Shown: one piece after another, positions 11,996 through 63,591 of the stretch | How positions within the stretch are numbered: position 1 is the first letter of the stretch | How the letters are laid out: the number at the start of each line of letters is the position of its first letter | Assembly (NCBI GenBank): GCA_964450385.1 | Contig: CAYVEC010000006.1 | Span: forward strand, 8,745 to 72,744 | Direction of reading: 5' to 3' | Length of the DNA stretch: 64,000 nt | Source of the DNA: an uncultured Planctomycetales bacterium | GTDB taxonomy: Bacteria > Omnitrophota > Gorgyraeia > Zapsychrales > JANLHA01 | The notes under the pieces: generated by a model | What the model was told of the DNA's origin: nothing | Seen by the model: the letters and a program-made list of their open reading frames with translations, nothing else | The model's database searches: none | Translations under genes and position numbers: made by a program

Positions 11996-12190
11996 AACAC
12001 CTCCTTTGTGTATTATAAAGAGAGCAAAAAATGTTCCTTTTTGCGAAAAATAGCATAAAATTATTAAAAATTTGCAAAAATTGTATTTAAACCACGAGAA
12101 ATCTGATCAGAATTTAGTAAATGTTTTTAAAATAGCACATTAAAATTTCCTTTTTTTCGAATCAAGAAGTGTTATAATAAAACACCCTGC
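11996..12190. promoter_or_regulatory. AT-rich (about 25% GC) divergent promoter region between PEP-CTERM gene and rarA
   Basis: 195 bp of A/T tracts in a 60% GC genome, immediately upstream of both divergent genes. Confidence 0.4.
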
Positions 12191-12365
12191 GGTGTGCGTT
12201 AGGGCTATCAATAAACGAACCAACACTTGTTTATGGGGAGCTGGATCTCTGAGATGGCCCTTGGGCCATTCAGGACGGCACCCACCTGGAAGCTCGGTTC
12301 GCCTCCAGTATAGCTCGACGGCATTTGCGGGGTATTTTTTATGGGCTGTATTTAAGGAAGTCAGG

Positions 12366-13721
12366 ATGTCCCGCGAGGTGAACGAACAAGATCTTTTTGA
12401 TGAGGATAGGGAGAGGGCCGAGCTCAAAACGACACCGCTCAGTGCTCGGATGCGCCCCCGGTCTCTTGAGGAATATGTGGGACAGTCGCATATCCTCGGG
12501 CCGGGCAAACTTTTGACCCGGGCCATTGAAGCCGACCGGATCACGTCGCTGATCCTGTACGGTCCTCCCGGCACTGGGAAGACGACCCTGGCCTTCTGCA
12601 TCAGCGCCAAGACCAAGGCGGTTTTTGAACGCGTCAACGCCGTGTCCTCAAATGTCGAGGAGCTCCGGAGGGTCATTGCCGGGGCCCAAAACCGGCGCCG
12701 GAATTTTGCTCACAAAACGATCGTCTTTATTGACGAGATCCATCGATTTAATAAAGCGCAACAGGACGTATTCATGCCCGATGTTGAAAATGGCAACATC
12801 GTGTTGATCGGGGCCACGACATTAAACCCTTTTTTTTCCTTAGTAAGTCCTTTATTATCAAGATCTTTGGTTTTTGAGCTCGAGCCGCTTTCGCCTGAGG
12901 AGATCGTTGTTTTGCTTCAAAGGGCGGTCGCGGATCCCGAGCGGGGGCTAGGGGAACTCCGCGTTGACGCGGACCCCGAGGCTTTGCGGTTTTTAGCGGA
13001 GACGAGCGATGGGGACGCCCGCCGGGCCTTGAATGCCCTGGAGATCGGATGCGTGACAACGCCGAAGGGCAAGGACGGCGTCGTTCGGTTTACGCTCGAG
13101 GCCGCTGAGCAGTCAATCCAAAAGAAGCAGGTTCAATATGACCGGAGCGGTGACGGGCATTATGATACGATCTCGGCGTTTATTAAATCGATGCGCGGGT
13201 CTGATCCGGATGCGGCGCTCTACTGGCTGGCCAAAATGCTGTATGCCGGCGAAGACCCACGATTTATTGCCCGACGCCTCGCGATCTGCGCGGCCGAGGA
13301 CGTCGGGAATGCGGACCCACAGGCGCTGGTCCTGGCCATGGCGGCTTTTAACGCTGTTGAAATGATCGGCTTGCCCGAGGCCCGGATCCCTCTTGCGCAG
13401 GCGGTCACCTATGTGGCTTGTGCCCCAAAATCAAATGCGGCTTATTTGGGGATCGCTCAGGCGATGGAGGACGTCACGACCCGTCGGATCCAGGAGGTTC
13501 CGGTCCATTTAAAAGACGCCCATTACCGTGGGGCCCAACAACTTGGCCACGGTGAGGGGTATAAATACGCGCATGATTATAAAGACCACTTTGTCCCGCA
13601 GGAATATATGCCGAAGGATGTTTCGTATTACCATCCCACGGATCAGGGATATGAGGCTAAGATCCAGGAGCGGATAAAGCGGCGAACTGGAGATAAAAAG
13701 CGGGGGACGGATAAAGTTTGA
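12366..13721 (+). CDS. rarA: replication-associated recombination protein A (MgsA/RarA AAA+ ATPase)
   Basis: Walker A GPPGTGKTTLA, Walker B IVFIDEIHRFNK, MgsA C-terminal domains; SD AAGGAAG then ATG 12366 (ORF-track 12192 start is extension). Confidence 0.85.
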   Translation: MSREVNEQDLFDEDRERAELKTTPLSARMRPRSLEEYVGQSHILGPGKLLTRAIEADRITSLILYGPPGTGKTTLAFCISAKTKAVFERVNAVSSNVEELRRVIAGAQNRRRNFAHKTIVFIDEIHRFNKAQQDVFMPDVENGNIVLIGATTLNPFFSLVSPLLSRSLVFELEPLSPEEIVVLLQRAVADPERGLGELRVDADPEALRFLAETSDGDARRALNALEIGCVTTPKGKDGVVRFTLEAAEQSIQKKQVQYDRSGDGHYDTISAFIKSMRGSDPDAALYWLAKMLYAGEDPRFIARRLAICAAEDVGNADPQALVLAMAAFNAVEMIGLPEARIPLAQAVTYVACAPKSNAAYLGIAQAMEDVTTRRIQEVPVHLKDAHYRGAQQLGHGEGYKYAHDYKDHFVPQEYMPKDVSYYHPTDQGYEAKIQERIKRRTGDKKRGTDKV

Positions 13722-13878: not shown

Positions 13879-14454
13879 TTGGATGTACAACAGGTGAAAG
13901 AAAACGAAAAAACAGTTATCCGGCAACGAATACGGAGTTTATTAAACAATCAAAAGGAGGAGGATCGGCTGGTCAAGAGCCGCGTGATTGCGGAGCGGTT
14001 TTTTGATCTGCCCGAAGTGTCAGCAGCTCAAACAATCTTGTTTTATGCGTCGTTTGCAGGCGAGGTTGAGACGTTTGAGATGATGAGGAAGGCACAATCA
14101 ATAGGTAAGCGGATCGCGTTACCCTGTGTCAACAAGGAAACAATGGAGTTCCTTCCTAAGGAAGTCAGAGACCTAGATCATGATTTGGAACAAGGACCGT
14201 ATACAATCAGGCAGCCCAAGACACGAACAGCCCGTGACATCGATCTCCAGGAGATTGGTGTGGTTGTTGTGCCTGGGCTTGCTTTTGATGCACTGAATTA
14301 TCGTCTAGGTCGAGGCGCAGGGTATTATGATCGTTTTTTAGCACGCTTATCCCCGAGGACATCCACGGTTGGTCTTGCCTTTGATTTTCAATTGGTATCA
14401 CGTCTGCCTGTTGAGCCGCACGATATTCGGGTGGGTCGCGTTCTGAGTCATTAG
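13879..14454 (+). CDS. 5-formyltetrahydrofolate cyclo-ligase
   Basis: 191 aa; motifs ...VVVPGLAFDALNYRLGRGAGYYDRFL; gene is visibly lower GC than neighbours. Confidence 0.75.
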   Translation: MDVQQVKENEKTVIRQRIRSLLNNQKEEDRLVKSRVIAERFFDLPEVSAAQTILFYASFAGEVETFEMMRKAQSIGKRIALPCVNKETMEFLPKEVRDLDHDLEQGPYTIRQPKTRTARDIDLQEIGVVVVPGLAFDALNYRLGRGAGYYDRFLARLSPRTSTVGLAFDFQLVSRLPVEPHDIRVGRVLSH

Positions 14455-34137: not shown

Positions 34138-35511
<1,374 letters not shown>

Positions 35512-35642
35512 GGGGAGCCCTGTGGGGTAGGCCTATTTATGGCCGCACTGATCAGGGATAGTGTTCTATTAAAGGTAGGGAAGATCGCAAGGTCGTAGAT
35601 GTGATAGTTTAATAAAAGTTTTAAAAAAATTGAAGGTAAAAA

Positions 35643-35675
35643 GGCCATATATTAACAAATATATGGCCTTTTTAA
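35643..35675 (+). terminator. strong rho-independent terminator after gdhA
   Basis: 10-bp stem GGCCATATAT/ATATATGGCC, loop TAACAA, then TTTTT; in AT-rich spacer. Confidence 0.75.
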
Positions 35676-35786
35676 TATAAATTTATCATTTTTTAAGTAT
35701 ATTGCCGCTTAAAAGAAAGCGTTTTTTTAAGATGCCCCAAAAGCATTGTTTTCAGCATTTATATACTATATATTTAGGTATATGAA

Positions 35787-36665
35787 ATGGTCTATTACAA
35801 AAACCACAATTTTATCAAAAACAATGCGTTTTTTGATTATTTTCTGCTTTTTAGGGCAATCAATAGCCCCTTCCTTTGTTTATGCGCAGATCTTTCCGGT
35901 TGCCGGCTTGCCGGCTCCAGGCGCGGCCATTTCCCTGACGTAGCCGTTTTTCCCGACTGCCTTAAGGGTATGCAGATCAATCCGCATAATCCATTTCAAT
36001 TTAATTTTATCCTGGATGCCGGTGATGAACAGCTCGATCCTGAAGATCGGAACGATCAGGTCGTAAGGCTGGCCAAGTATTTTTTGGCTGGCCTGACGAT
36101 CCCTGAGGAGGATCTGTGGGTGAACCTGTCTCCGTATGAAAAGGATCGTATTATTGCCGGTGATTTTGCCCGGACCGAGATGGGGCGCGATGTCCTTGCC
36201 CAGGATTATATGTTGAAGCAGCTGACCGCGTCGTTGATGGACCCGCGTCAGGAGCTGGGGAGTCATTTTTGGCAGCGCTTAAAAAAGCGGGCAAAAGATG
36301 AATACGGGGTGGCGGATATCACGGCCGACACCATTCATAAGGTCTGGATCGTGCCTGAGCGGGCCGAGGTGACCGTGGGCGAGAATGGTGTCTTTTTGGG
36401 CGACCTGCGGCTCCAGGTGATGCTGGAGGAAGACTATTTAGCTAGGGCGCAAGAAAGATTTATTGTTAGAACGCCCCGGCCGAATACGAACACGGCTTTG
36501 TCGACGGAGCTGATGCGTGAGCTCATCATTCCGGCGATCGAAGAGGAGGTCAATCAGGGCCGCACCTTCGCGACCCTGCGCCAGATCTACGGGGCCATGG
36601 TCCTCTCGGTGTGGTTTAAGAATCATTTAAAAGAGAGCCTTCTCACCCGCGGGTATGCAGATTAG
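35787..36665 (+). CDS. hypothetical protein, N-terminal segment of a giant low-GC ORFan; ends at in-frame TAG 36663-36665
   Basis: ATG 35787 with AGGT 7 nt upstream; no recognisable domains; same frame as 36825 ORF with no other stop between; an alternative +1-frame signal peptide (35782-35943) overlaps the 5' end. Confidence 0.4.
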   Translation: MVYYKNHNFIKNNAFFDYFLLFRAINSPFLCLCADLSGCRLAGSRRGHFPDVAVFPDCLKGMQINPHNPFQFNFILDAGDEQLDPEDRNDQVVRLAKYFLAGLTIPEEDLWVNLSPYEKDRIIAGDFARTEMGRDVLAQDYMLKQLTASLMDPRQELGSHFWQRLKKRAKDEYGVADITADTIHKVWIVPERAEVTVGENGVFLGDLRLQVMLEEDYLARAQERFIVRTPRPNTNTALSTELMRELIIPAIEEEVNQGRTFATLRQIYGAMVLSVWFKNHLKESLLTRGYAD

Positions 36666-36824
36666 CAGAAGACCGAAGGCCTTCATCCCGACGATCCGGA
36701 TATCCAGCAGAAGATCTATGAACAGTATCTCGCCGCGCTTAAGAAAGGCGTCGCGAATTTTATTCAGGAAGAGGCGGACCCGCTGACCGGGACGGTTATT
36801 CCAAGGAAATATTTTACCGGCGGG

Positions 36825-39371
36825 GTGGACGGGGCCATGATCAGCGCGCGGACCGTAGAGGTCCCGGCAACGCCTGCGACAATGGACCGGTGGAAGAGCA
36901 CGTTTGAAAATGGACTTGTAGCCAGCTTGTATTTGGTTGATCCGAAGGCAGCAACAGGAGAGCCTGTTGATATCAGCGGTGCGTCCGAGGACTCGGCCAT
37001 GCTGAGCGAGGCGGAGGCGAAGGATTTTTATGAAAGCGACCTTCAAGGAGTTGGGAGAGTTCAATGGCAGAATCTTTCTATAAAGTCGAGAGCGGTGCTT
37101 CAAGAGATCGGCAGGGATCCGAGGCTACTGGAGCTTGGGAAAGCCGCCGGGGCGAATGCGCGGAACTTGTTTTATGATGGTTTGCCGGCAGTGAAGGCGC
37201 TGTTTGGTGACGAGTTTGGTAAGTATTGGCCGGGCTTAGTCGAGTTGGGAAAAGCCGCGGGTGAAAATGCTGGGTATTTGTTTCAACATGGATTGAAGAT
37301 GGTCTACCCTTTTGTTGATCCGGCTCACGGCTGGGACGAGTGGATCAACAGGTGGCGCCAATTGGCCCGGGTCACGAATGAACACAATCTGCAAAGAATC
37401 ATTGATTTAATGAGATGGACATCGATCCTCACTTATGTCAAAGACCAGGGAGGCAGCGTTGATCAGCACTTTGATTTTTATGTTGAGCTGAGCAAAGAGA
37501 ATAAGCGTCTTGCCCTGCAAGTTTTAGAGGGGGTCTTTGACGGTTTTAAAGAAGGGAGCCTTTCTGTTGAATTAACCGACGAGGCGCGAGGCGAGATCAG
37601 GGGCTTTATTAGAAAAACGAATGGTTTTAACCTGGCCGTGTATCGTGTTTATCAACAGGAGGGCGAGGCCGGGCTGGTGAGGTTGCGGGCGTTTGCAGCA
37701 AACGCGTTGAATGACCAGGTGGGCAAGACAGAGGTCCAAGAGTTTTTAGCGGACAACCGATCCCGAGGATACGATGCCGAGTCGCTGCTTCTTGGGACAG
37801 CGCAGATGTTTGTTCCGGCCAGCGGCGCCTCGTTTGTGAATAAGGAAGAGATCTTGGGGCTGTTGAAGGAATTTATCGAGGCCGGTGACCGGCGCGGGGA
37901 TGTGCCGGAGGCGCTCCGGGGGTCGAGCTTTGGTGGTGGGGATATTGAGGTGGTGGAGTGGCGGTTAAAACAAGGGGAAACGGTTGATCCTGACGGGAGG
38001 CTGAATAGACTCGTCTCGCAGTTGAGGAACGGAGACCAGGGCCGATCAGCAGACGAGGTTGCGAAGGCTCAAGCCCAAGACCGGGCGGAGTTGGTTGCCG
38101 CGGTCAAAGAATATTTAAAGGGCCGCGGCCAGGAGACACGAGACCGGGCTGTAGAGGCCTTTTTAAGATATGTGAGCCACAATGATCTATTAAAAGAGAA
38201 GATCGATCGGATCGACGGATATGATTATGTGAATATTGAGCTGTTGGATCAGTTGTTCCGGGATAAAGACCAGCTTTTTATTCTGTTGAGGGAGATCATT
38301 GAGAAAGATATTGAAGAAGAGCTGCTGATTGTGGAAGGTGACGAGGGCGCGCCTGTTCGCGATGTTGAGGGGCTGGTCAATCGGGTCGAGGGCGTGTGGA
38401 GATCAGAGCGGCTGGGCCGTGATCAACGGCGTCAGGTTGTGGGAAACATGCTGCGGGGGTTTTCAGGGGCAGAGGTTCGGTCAAAGATTGTCCCTCGGCT
38501 TGAGGGAGAGGCCCGCGAGGCGGTCGAGGAGATTTTGAATGATCACTCGGTTCGGTGGAAGATGGATGTGGCGCAGGTGATCAATGATCTTTTGAGCGGC
38601 CCGGCCCAGGTCATCGCGCGTGAGAAGGCGCGGTTTGAGGCGGTCACGGGAGGACAGCGGATCCAGTTGAGGTTCCGGGCGGTGAAGGGTCCGTTGTATG
38701 GCCTATGGGGGCTGAATGCGGGCGTGTGTATCGCGACGGATGTTGAGTTATGGAAGGACGGGAATTTTTATCTTCTGGCTATGGTTGATGAGACGATCGG
38801 TCAGGCGGTGGGATTTATTCATCTCTACGCGCAGACGATGGATGGGCGGCGGGTCGTGGTTGTTCCGGGGATCGAGCCGAGCGTGGAATTTTTGGGGCAG
38901 GTTAAGGTGAGTGACATTTATCCGATGATCGAGGCGGCGTTACGTGAGGTGGCGGTGCGGGCGGGGTATGAGGCGGTGTATCTGCCAACGAATGAAAATA
39001 TTTTGAGCAACCGGGGGGATATTCAGAAGCTGGTGACGAGGGCGGGGTACAAGATCTCGGATAAATTCAAGGGGCCGGTCCGCTGGAATCATGTGCCCGG
39101 GCCCGCTCTTATTCATCAGGTGTATGACGTGCCGGTCACCAAGGCGAAAACTGACTCGGCCATGCTGAGCGAGGCGGCGTCTGAGCCGGCACAGATCGGC
39201 CGCGATCAGGTGGGCGGCATTGACCTCGCCGGGATCAATATTGATATGGTGATCCGCGGTGAGATGCCGTTTCAGATGCCGGCCATCACAGAGGAGGCCC
39301 TGATCATGGATGCGGATTTCAGCGGGCTGGTGCCCGTGGTACATTTTGTGGTGCCGGTGGCTGTGAAATGA
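36825..39371 (+). CDS. hypothetical large protein (848-aa segment; frame continuous with 35787-36665 across a single TAG; possibly one 1.19-kaa protein or a pseudogene)
   Basis: Uninterrupted 2.5-kb ORF, lower GC than flanks, no known motifs recognised; internal 30-aa tandem repeat (ELGKAAGxNAxxLF) and 25-bp perfect direct DNA repeats at 36990 and 39153. Confidence 0.5.
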   Translation: MDGAMISARTVEVPATPATMDRWKSTFENGLVASLYLVDPKAATGEPVDISGASEDSAMLSEAEAKDFYESDLQGVGRVQWQNLSIKSRAVLQEIGRDPRLLELGKAAGANARNLFYDGLPAVKALFGDEFGKYWPGLVELGKAAGENAGYLFQHGLKMVYPFVDPAHGWDEWINRWRQLARVTNEHNLQRIIDLMRWTSILTYVKDQGGSVDQHFDFYVELSKENKRLALQVLEGVFDGFKEGSLSVELTDEARGEIRGFIRKTNGFNLAVYRVYQQEGEAGLVRLRAFAANALNDQVGKTEVQEFLADNRSRGYDAESLLLGTAQMFVPASGASFVNKEEILGLLKEFIEAGDRRGDVPEALRGSSFGGGDIEVVEWRLKQGETVDPDGRLNRLVSQLRNGDQGRSADEVAKAQAQDRAELVAAVKEYLKGRGQETRDRAVEAFLRYVSHNDLLKEKIDRIDGYDYVNIELLDQLFRDKDQLFILLREIIEKDIEEELLIVEGDEGAPVRDVEGLVNRVEGVWRSERLGRDQRRQVVGNMLRGFSGAEVRSKIVPRLEGEAREAVEEILNDHSVRWKMDVAQVINDLLSGPAQVIAREKARFEAVTGGQRIQLRFRAVKGPLYGLWGLNAGVCIATDVELWKDGNFYLLAMVDETIGQAVGFIHLYAQTMDGRRVVVVPGIEPSVEFLGQVKVSDIYPMIEAALREVAVRAGYEAVYLPTNENILSNRGDIQKLVTRAGYKISDKFKGPVRWNHVPGPALIHQVYDVPVTKAKTDSAMLSEAASEPAQIGRDQVGGIDLAGINIDMVIRGEMPFQMPAITEEALIMDADFSGLVPVVHFVVPVAVK

Positions 39372-39411
39372 CAGAACGATTGATCATTTTTCAGGGCATA
39401 AAAAAACGGGC

Positions 39412-39440
39412 TTGACAATCCCAATCTCATCGTGTATATT
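39412..39440 (+). promoter_or_regulatory. consensus sigma70-type promoter of amt-glnK unit
   Basis: TTGACA (39412-39417), 17-nt spacer, TATATT (39435-39440); about 200-nt structured leader follows. Confidence 0.6.
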
Positions 39441-39640
39441 TTAACCAACTGAAGGCGCTGGGGTCTTCAGGAAAAAGATGGACGCGACAGTGAAGTCCTC
39501 AACGGTCAGGCGATGATGCCTCCGACGAGGATTTTTTTGTTGGTCCATGAGTTGGGGCAGAGACGTCCTTAAAGGGCTTAAGACCGGAAAAGCCTTTTAG
39601 GGATTTTTTGTTTTCTGCGCCACACCACAAGGAGAAAAAA

Positions 39641-62257: not shown

Positions 62258-62321
62258 AATAAAAATAAGTGTATTTTTTGACATTTATCTATATAATGGT
62301 TCTGCCCTAAAGGGTTTGGGG

Positions 62322-62340
62322 AGGCCGGTGAGGCCTTTTT
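62322..62340 (+). terminator. weak terminator-like hairpin after pyrG
   Basis: AGGCC-GGTGA-GGCCT then TTTTT. Confidence 0.35.
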
Positions 62341-62403
62341 CGCGGCGGTGACACCTGTGGCCGGAGGGGCAGATTGACAAGCGATGTTCCTGGTTGGAGT
62401 TTC

Positions 62404-62485
<82 letters not shown>

Positions 62486-62632
62486 TAAATTTTTCATATG
62501 TATTTTGTGTACGTATTAAAAAGTCGGATCCGGAAATATTCGTATGTAGGGTGAACGAATAATATTGATCGGCGGGTTCGCGAGCATCAGGAGGGGCGAA
62601 GCCGGAGCACTCGGGCGTATCGGCCTTTTGAT

Positions 62633-62815
62633 GTGGTTTCTGTGGAAGAGTTTGAGACTCGGGGAGAGGCTCGGCTCCGTGAGAAGTGGCTGAAGAGCGG
62701 CTGTGGACGGGAGATGAGGAAGAAGGAGGGTTCTCAAGCGCGTCGATGCCTCCTAATGGCAGACAGACAGGAGGGGCGTGTGGAGCAATCCCTGCCCGCC
62801 GGCAGGCGGGCATGA
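62633..62815 (+). pseudogene. remnant of GIY-YIG (YhbQ/UPF0213-type) endonuclease gene, C-terminal third only
   Basis: Translation VSVEEFETRGEARLREKWLKSG matches the conserved C-terminal block of YhbQ-like GIY-YIG proteins; an EHSG-like piece of the middle motif appears in another frame upstream; no intact GIY-YIG N-terminus. Confidence 0.45.
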
Positions 62816-62838
62816 GGGTTCGATTCCCTCCTCGCGCA
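62738..62838 (+). repeat. degenerate second copy of tRNA-Leu(GAG): 3' half identical, 5' half decayed, 20-nt palindromic insertion in variable arm
   Basis: 62771-62791 and 62812-62849 are identical to the anticodon-loop-to-3'-flank part of the upstream tRNA, including 9 nt past the acceptor end (TAAATTTTT); inserted CTGCCCGCCGGCAGGCGGGC forms a 7-bp hairpin; acceptor 5' strand and anticodon stem no longer pair. Confidence 0.5.
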
Positions 62839-62850
62839 TAAATTTTTTCG

Positions 62851-63591
62851 TTGTCGGATCCCATCATGAAGGGGCGTATGTCCAAGGACATTCAGGTTAG
62901 CGTTAGCATTCTCTGCGCCGACTTTACGCGGTTGGCCGAGGAGGTCCGGCGGATCGAGGCGAGCGGTGCTGACCGCATTCACGTGGATGTGATGGACGGC
63001 CATTTTGTCGCGCCCATTACCATGGGCGATCTCATCGTCAAAGCCGTGAGGCCGCTCACGCGGCTCATCATTGAGGCGCACTTGATGATCGATCATCCGG
63101 CCTCTCAGATCGAAAATTTTGCCCGCGCCGGCGCGGACGTGATCTCGGTCCACGCTGAGTGCTACGGTCCGCGGAGCGCGGCATCTGCCGGATTCGGCCG
63201 TTTCCCTAAAGAGATCGTCCATTTTGACCGTGAGGCGGCGCGCCGCGATTTGAGCGCGATCCGCGCCTTGGGGAAAAAGGCGGTCCTTGTCTTTAATCCC
63301 GCGACCCCGGTGACGATCGATGGTCTTATTGACGTGATCGATGGGGTTTTGATCATGTCGGTCAATCCCGGTTTTGCGCACCAGAAATTCATGCCGGCCG
63401 CGCTCGGGAAGGTCGATCAGGCCGCGCGCCTCGTTGACGAGGTGGCGATCGACGGAGGGATTAACGACGTGACCGGAGCGGAGGCGGTGAAGGCCGGGGC
63501 CACGGTCCTTGCGACGGCGAGTTATTTTTTTGCCTCGAAAGACCCTCAGCGGCTCGTCAAGGGGCTCAAGGCCTTAGGCGATTCCCACTAA
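62851..63591 (+). CDS. rpe: ribulose-phosphate 3-epimerase
   Basis: ...IQVSVSILCADFTRLAEEVRRIEASGADRIHVDVMDGHFV... canonical Rpe barrel; true start probably internal ATG 62866 or 62878. Confidence 0.85.
   Translation: MSDPIMKGRMSKDIQVSVSILCADFTRLAEEVRRIEASGADRIHVDVMDGHFVAPITMGDLIVKAVRPLTRLIIEAHLMIDHPASQIENFARAGADVISVHAECYGPRSAASAGFGRFPKEIVHFDREAARRDLSAIRALGKKAVLVFNPATPVTIDGLIDVIDGVLIMSVNPGFAHQKFMPAALGKVDQAARLVDEVAIDGGINDVTGAEAVKAGATVLATASYFFASKDPQRLVKGLKALGDSH

Follow-up and report, generated by a model that had tools for sequence, protein, structure and literature searches.

Polymorphic toxins and effectors of the Rhs, CdiA and MafB types combine a constant N-terminal delivery part with a variable C-terminal payload. 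The Archaeovorins, described from the Omnitrophota, are encoded by genes longer than 90 kb. These proteins, with their numerous transmembrane helices and SecA-like domains, are predicted to lie outside the cell, yet they contain an unexpected abundance of HEAT repeats, GNATs, NUDIX domains and domains of glycolytic enzymes (bioRxiv 10.1101/2023.11.21.568195). The gene treated here lies at positions 35782-39371 of a 64,000-nucleotide stretch of contig CAYVEC010000006.1 (assembly GCA_964450385.1; the whole stretch is called the window below). It is a member of a large, phylum-wide and multi-copy Omnitrophota family. Each protein starts with a signal peptide, continues with a conserved domain of about 310 residues (the N-terminal domain, or N-domain) and then a cargo that varies between members, and ends in a GGIDL tail. 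The window copy is interrupted by two in-frame TAG codons and a frameshift, and in our view is probably a young pseudogene.

Like the Archaeovorins, the family belongs to the Omnitrophota, is predicted to be exported and draws on a shared repertoire of HEAT, GNAT, NUDIX, HATPase_c, TPI, FBPase and PGM domains. Proteins as long as 6.7 kilo-amino acids (kaa) contain the cargo module of the window gene too, and a continuum from gene-sized family members to giant Omnitrophota proteins is suggested. Unlike an Archaeovorin gene, the window gene has about 1.2 thousand codons, a single cargo and a head and tail common to its family, and it falls outside the size-based definition of that group, whose description mentions neither the N-domain nor the GGIDL tail (bioRxiv 10.1101/2023.11.21.568195). 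More generally, we found no description of either element in the Omnitrophota literature searched. The likeness to polymorphic toxins lies in the conserved N-terminal module, the variable downstream modules and the many paralogues per genome, which often stand in tandem. However, the family shows no sequence or fold relationship to those toxins and no immunity gene or conserved neighbour was found; its payloads are metabolic and signalling enzymes, not nucleases or deaminases, and they are followed by a conserved tail.

A first-pass annotation, made from the sequence alone, had presented the locus as an ORFan belonging to no family. When the joined window protein was used as the query and 8,000 candidates were scored, more than 2,700 of them gave significant matches to the N-domain, with an identity of about 50% in the first 26% of the query and divergence thereafter, and the cargo has hundreds of relatives of its own, as described below. 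The window N-domain is 47-54% identical to its homologues. The organism labels of the matches are all Omnitrophota or Omnitrophica, except for three "hydrothermal vent metagenome" entries and two labelled Nanoarchaeota or Bathyarchaeia. The signature of the N-domain reads LPxPG ... WVNLSPYE ... LRQIY ... PRKYFSGG, and the consensus of the family tail is D.AM...GGIDLNP......GF.PvIinItPv.nLPllLG; among the 120 homologous proteins listed, over which tail and architecture were counted, GGI[DN][LFM] stands about 50-140 residues from the C-terminus in 94, typically some 70 residues from it. Pfam domains recognized in the cargos include some that are metabolic (PEPCK, GAPDH, TPI, PGK, FBPase, FBP aldolase/phosphatase, NDK, UDPGP and PGM), signalling (protein kinases, PP2C, HATPase_c and response regulators) or of other kinds (methyltransferases, NUDIX, GNAT, HEAT/TPR, LysM, and glycosyl transferases and hydrolases).

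A scan of DNA with the N-domain alignment, one genome per species, returned at least 561 confirmed loci, all of them in metagenome-assembled genomes (MAGs) of Omnitrophota, some of which are labelled "uncultured Planctomycetales". MAGs titled "uncultured Planctomycetales bacterium" occur at loci L002, L004-L006, L008, L010 and others (contigs CAZ... and CAY...). Such labels on MAGs that carry the family are probably taxonomic errors from an automated pipeline. The window, too, comes from an Omnitrophota MAG: its threonyl-tRNA synthetase is 100% identical to an NCBI protein and has its next-best matches, at 75% identity, in Omnitrophota. Several MAGs supply five to eight each of the best 80 loci, which were the ones analysed further, and in 13 of the 80 the N-domain is present two or three times in a span of about 10 kb by tblastn (for example L043, 454-8619, and L079, 2359-10547). 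Whenever the locus contains the whole of the neighbouring copy, the two are on the same strand and 3-5 kb apart. The multi-copy loci suggest expansion by local duplication. No partner gene is conserved across the 80 loci, and no neighbour family recurs in more than four of them.

Searches of Pfam, NCBIfam, PADLOC and PHROGs with both window segments and with P0003, the closest N-domain relative of the window copy, gave no meaningful match, for the N-domain or otherwise, and comparison with the PDB produced neither a sequence match nor a structural relative. An AlphaFold2 model made on the N-domain segment of P0003 with 26 aligned sequences (predicted local distance difference test, pLDDT, 75.5; predicted template modelling score, pTM, 0.71) contains two beta-hairpins, a long beta-hairpin and long helices. 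P0003, P0006 (HQL24_05090) and P0012 (AB1650_07125), which are named "hypothetical protein", and P0047, named "LysM ... protein", resemble the window copy in their signal peptide ending in A-Q, their LPxPG...WVNLSPYE...PRKYFSGG N-domain, the position of the cargo and the GGIDL tail, of which a short variant is common to the window copy and P0003. The window copy differs from these relatives in being broken and in its helical-plus-GNAT cargo, which is rare in the family, parts of it being found only in P0121, P0001, P0122 and P0002.

Since the family architecture covers exactly 35782-39371, this interval reads as one gene of about 1,196 codons, whose parts and lesions are as follows.

35782..35940, + strand: original 5' end in frame 1 (coordinate modulo 3 equal to 1), with ATG 35782, the signal peptide MKWSITKTTILSKTMRFLIIFCFLGQSIAPSFVYAQ and the start of the N-domain, ..GLPAPGAAISLT (translation, alignment, family hidden Markov model, HMM)
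35908..36830, + strand: conserved family N-domain of about 310 residues, LPAPG ... PRKYFTGG, interrupted by all three lesions (alignment, HMM)
35941..35943, + strand: first in-frame TAG (codon 54), in a variable P/A/S/E column between an invariant S/T and an invariant F/Y column (translation, alignment, HMM)
35949..35967, + strand: interval of a 1-nt deletion, frame 1 to frame 0 (HMM pieces overlapping at HMM positions 56-61, register, residue matches)
36663..36665, + strand: second in-frame TAG (codon 295), in a column with Q in 75, K in 29 and R in 10 of 117 homologues (alignment, HMM)
36990..37014, + strand: linker motif DSAMLSEA ahead of the cargo, first copy of a 25-nt perfect direct repeat
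37080..37388, + strand: two helical repeats of about 37 residues, ..YWPGLVELGKAAGxNAxxLF..GLP.VK.LF
37320..38633, + strand: all-helical part, about 435 residues, of a recurrent cargo module of about 600 residues
38634..39131, + strand: alpha/beta domain of the cargo, modelled as a GNAT fold, with conserved FR.VKG, GVC.A.D..LW, PGIEPS and SNR
39153..39177, + strand: second copy of the 25-nt direct repeat (DSAMLSEA), past the cargo
39213..39371, + strand: C-terminal GGIDL tail, short variant as in P0003, then a TGA stop

The first-pass annotation had noticed that the open reading frames (ORFs) 35787..36665 and 36825..39371 share a frame in which TAG 36663-36665 is the sole stop between them, and this is borne out. 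Past the TAG the frame stays open for 901 codons, and the other five frames hold 18-58 stops. Both of the starts that it proposed have to be revised. The codon at 36825 is GTG, the first ATG of the second ORF being at 36837, and reading from ATG 35787 gives MVYYKNHNFIKNN..., whereas the true family N-terminus lies in another frame, in which the signal peptide and LPAPG are encoded from ATG 35782. This frame encodes MKWSITKTTILSKTMRFLIIFCFLGQSIAPSFVYAQIFPVAGLPAPGAAISLT and then runs into TAG 35941-35943. The leader MKWSITKTTILSKTMRFLIIFCFLGQSIAPSFVYAQ, out of frame with the gene body in the window copy, is hydrophobic and ends in A-Q (the A is kept in 109 and the Q in 102 of the 117 homologues, in which LPxPG is also conserved); it is predicted to be a cleaved signal peptide of the Sec type.

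The position of the frameshift was given by a family HMM built from the same 117 homologues as the alignment, with the window sequence left out. HMM positions 5-61 match frame 1 at 35794-35967 (E 3.9e-8, 20 bits), through TAG 35941, and positions 56-368 match frame 0 at 35949-36869 (469 bits, E 2e-144), through TAG 36663. Because the matches switch from frame 1 to frame 0, a 1-nt frameshift is placed within 35949-35967; the best fit for the deletion is GCC(C)TT at 35958-35962, with the T5 and C3 runs at 35947-35954 as alternatives. The 13-residue register from PG to LKG holds only with passage through TAG 35941 plus the shift of frame. At the other end of the domain, TAG 36663 falls inside the strongly conserved motif Y-[VA]-D-Q-x-K-x-x-G, and a single CAG-to-TAG transition would be its simplest origin. 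The 53 codons that follow it (36666-36824) had been described as open and protein-like, and they are so because they encode the conserved end of the N-domain, its most conserved tail being KIYEQY..AFKKGVYNYIKE.YDP.TQ.IPRKYFSGG.

When the homologues were checked for integrity, as the first-pass annotation had proposed, they proved to be single uninterrupted ORFs of 400-2,334 residues with the same layout, running across the position of TAG 36663. The best 80 loci, all of which come from other MAGs, contain about 95 N-domain copies, and no internal stop occurs in any of these. The window copy, with its two TAGs and one frameshift, departs from the single ORF that characterizes the family. A recent nonsense mutation in one large gene, the explanation formerly ranked first, is essentially correct, but it counted one lesion where there are three.

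As a nonsense codon, TAG 35941 together with the 1-nt deletion about six codons later would uncouple the signal peptide from the body of the protein, and TAG 36663 would truncate the conserved N-domain; with all three lesions no full-length exported product could be made, and the inactivation would be recent. Since such a product appears impossible, we regard the locus as probably a young pseudogene, and we infer that its lesions are biological and not assembly errors. Of the 96 N-domain columns with a conservation of 90% or more, the window copy deviates at seven, each time by a conservative change (the family mean is 2.9% and the maximum 9.4%). In the cargo, 57 columns reach a conservation of 80% or more across 64 full-length modules, and the window copy matches 54 of them. 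Such a mild pattern of decay fits a very recent inactivation. By our estimate, a gene with two nonsense changes would have undergone some forty substitutions altogether; the corresponding divergence of 1-2% agrees with the slightly raised number of deviations.

Several observations weigh against a pseudogene. Outside the lesions the gene is in very good condition, including the 901 open codons, and errors in the consensus of an intact gene, or continued use of the cargo ORF, would produce the same picture. The frameshift adjoins short homopolymers (T5 and C3), which are typical sites of sequencing error, and both internal TAGs are followed by C, a weak termination context that occurs at only one of the 16 genuine TAG stops. 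No close relative or orthologue of the cargo was found in the genome and metagenome contigs scanned. Finally, the sequence comes from a MAG.

The gene could be intact in the organism, in which case the two TAGs and the missing base would be errors, or minority alleles, fixed in the MAG consensus. The origin of the sequence from a metagenome-assembled contig, the T5 and C3 runs in the frameshift interval and the fully constrained appearance of the remaining gene are all consistent with this. However, three lesions fall in one 3.6-kb gene and none in the 45 other ORFs of the window (non-overlapping map, about 57 kb of coding sequence), which are intact and tightly packed. Two stop-creating substitution errors would be unusual in a consensus assembly, and paralogues that are only about 50% identical in protein make assembly collapse unlikely. 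Because all three lesions are in one gene and the rest of the window is clean, we rate consensus error lower than gene decay and consider it unlikely.

Two products might instead be made from the locus, the 844-residue ORF (ATG 36837, or GTG 36825) being expressed alone as a cytoplasmic helical-plus-GNAT protein, with the upstream part as a remnant. The cargo module of about 600 residues mostly occurs without the N-domain, whose WVNLS motif is present in only 4 of 146 representatives, and the window cargo retains 54 of its 57 conserved columns. The 844-residue product is also recorded as protein P0390 (window 36837-39368); its 90% cluster is represented by an unrelated 34-residue Logan peptide, P0391, a clustering artefact owing to which the self-match is absent from representative-based homology searches. 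A weak GGTGGA lies 8 nt upstream of ATG 36837. Yet the codons just before this start belong to the conserved N-domain, and the G-rich Shine-Dalgarno-like stretch is the coding sequence for Y-F-x-G-G. The product would moreover retain the family linker and the GGIDL tail, which make sense only in an exported architecture, and a search of the + strand within the gene revealed no promoter-like site. We therefore think a separate cargo product quite improbable, and keep to the pseudogene as the likeliest explanation of the locus.

Programmed recoding, in which both UAGs would be read by a near-cognate tRNA-Gln(CUG) or a suppressor and a -1 shift would occur at G_TTT_TTC (35946-35952), yielding a low level of full-length protein, strikes us as highly improbable: C follows both internal TAGs (after the 16 genuine TAG stops the base is G in 9, A in 5, T in 1 and C in 1), a -1 slip at TTT_TTC brings back the family register and the window encodes a tRNA-Gln(CTG), but the C context arises by chance in about 5% of cases and so is weak support, the heptamer is not a canonical X_XXY_YYZ and no relative needs a shift, no in-frame stop or shift occurs in any of the approximately 95 other family copies nor a stop at the TAG 36663 column in the 117 homologues, and three independent low-efficiency events in series would give a negligible yield. 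The first-pass annotation had entertained readthrough or suppression of TAG 36663 alone, which would also have to account for a second TAG and for the frameshift that cuts off the signal peptide. The suppressor tRNA(CUA) that it proposed to look for is not among the five tRNAs of the window. It was correct that TAG is a genuine stop and the code not reassigned: 16 of the other 45 ORFs terminate at TAG, and in most cases another gene begins shortly afterwards. Pyrrolysine at the TAG codons was set aside, TAG being a common genuine stop in the window, as was phase variation, for which the T5 and C3 homopolymers are too short.

The cargo was searched with HMMER (query, window 37320-39149) against 1.84 billion cluster representatives. 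At E <= 1e-3 there were 309 matching representatives, of which 93 reached E <= 1e-30, and many are 2-6.7 kaa long; a word-indexed search had returned only four relatives, P0121 (42% identity over 92%), P0001, P0122 and P0123. In several matches the alignment to the query falls into two or three distinct segments; for some proteins these may be repeated copies. Since the family N-domain motif is present in so few of the 146 module carriers, the helical-plus-GNAT unit of about 600 residues is an independent module captured by the family. Proteins that consist of the module alone have no Pfam match. The module was also seen in proteins of 3.5-6.7 kaa (P0124, P0125, P0130, P0145 and others), some with up to three query stretches, and the WVNLS motif of the N-domain occurs in P0125 (4,199 residues) and P0147 (3,495 residues). 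The helical repeats of about 37 residues, of which the window copy has two, are present in many more copies in P0001 and P0121.

In a confident AlphaFold2 model of window 37320-39368 (pLDDT 84.9, pTM 0.75), residues 1 to about 435 are helical except for one beta-hairpin, residues 439-604 form an alpha/beta domain and the GGIDL tail is unstructured. The model shows the alpha/beta domain with a GNAT fold, and it would presumably be an acyltransferase. Compared with members of the GNAT superfamily such as NatD/Naa40 (PDB 4u9w), sequence identity is 7-17%. No GNAT profile of Pfam or NCBIfam matches the window protein at E <= 1, and a noise-level ArsN2 match (E 0.2) maps elsewhere. The usual Q/RxxGxG/A acetyl-CoA loop is absent from the conserved columns, in which the cargo instead has a family-specific PGIEPS..F, plus SNR, and unlike GNATs the domain is fused to a helical domain of about 435 residues. 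The tail of the window copy reads DSAML..VGGIDLAG...FSGLVPVVHFVVPV, with 52 residues from GGIDL to the end and, as in P0003, without the nLPllLG ending.

The cargo is bracketed exactly by the two copies of the 25-nt perfect direct repeat, GACTCGGCCATGCTGAGCGAGGCGG, which encodes DSAMLSEA; they are in frame and 2,163 nt apart, and the chance expectation of such a repeat is 0. P0121, the closest cargo homologue and from another organism, has an identical 28-residue peptide on both sides of its cargo. A check of some 267 further proteins showed no cargo-flanking repeat, and neither did one of 60 further ORFs of the family; such DNA repeats were rejected as a general feature of the family, none of the 60 having repeats at the linkers. 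The 25-nt repeat may be the trace of a cassette insertion or of gene conversion between the linkers.

The gene is flanked by gdhA, amt, glnK, a glutamine synthetase-like (GS-like) gene and GATase, so that the nitrogen-assimilation neighbourhood had been correctly recognized, as had the terminator near 35643-35675 and the consensus amt promoter. The signals around the gene are these.

35637..35674, no strand assigned: terminator-like hairpin of 17 pairs with an A-run and a T-run on its flanks, 3' of gdhA
35706-35728, no strand given: smaller second hairpin with a T-run
39412-39440, no strand given: amt promoter, TTGACA-17-TATATT

No consensus promoter-like site was found upstream of ATG 35782 on the + strand, and Rfam gave nothing relevant at the locus. 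The first-pass annotation saw here a low-GC island with AT-rich spacers, lying like a foreign insert in the nitrogen-assimilation block. The gene body is in fact ordinary, with a GC content of 0.536-0.549 and a third-position GC content (GC3) of 0.63-0.65, within one standard deviation of the window genes (0.572 +/- 0.031 and 0.685 +/- 0.061), and the AT-rich part that does exist is limited to the 275-bp spacer and the signal-peptide region, 35500-36000. Composition thus gives no sign of a foreign insert. A horizontally acquired island was rejected on the ordinary GC and GC3, the gdhA and amt flanks, the lack of a nearby tRNA and the nativeness of the family to the host phylum. The place between gdhA and amt had also been taken as a hint of function; it is incidental and has no functional meaning, because the genes around family members are unrelated housekeeping genes that differ from locus to locus, and none is conserved as a neighbour.

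Downstream of its promoter, the amt leader (39445-39610) folds very stably, at -74.5 kcal/mol (z = -7.1), and has no Rfam match. It contains one hairpin with U7 directly after it and another that extends to the TTG start, and could act as an attenuator or riboregulator. Elsewhere in the window, a 6S RNA (RF00013, 71 bits) at 12181-12337 overlaps the first possible start of ORF 12192..13721, whose true start is probably further downstream. The truly deviant ORFs of the window are 13879-14454 (GC 0.477, GC3 0.453) and 62307-62891 on the - strand (GC3 0.523), far below the locus.

We recommend that the annotation of the locus read pseudogene, within a paralogous family, its stop codon probably reflecting ordinary gene decay. 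The point of interest is the family itself, which is restricted to Omnitrophota and has thousands of members and many copies per genome. From their sequences, intact members would probably be exported carrier-cargo proteins, possibly displayed at the surface or delivered to host or prey cells. Tentatively, and as a possibility that we hold to be doubtful, the family might represent an undescribed, Omnitrophota-wide carrier-cargo export system in which the signal peptide and N-domain carry interchangeable enzymes of cytoplasmic type across the envelope, with D-x-A-M linkers bracketing the cargo ahead of the GGIDL tail, to the surface or to the host or prey of these ultra-small epibionts. If this were true, the 25-nt repeat and the 28-residue repeat of P0121 would be traces of the insertion or exchange of cargo cassettes. 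If intact members are exported, the family would offer a tractable, gene-sized route to the question of why host-dependent nanobacteria put glycolytic and signalling enzymes outside the cytoplasm.

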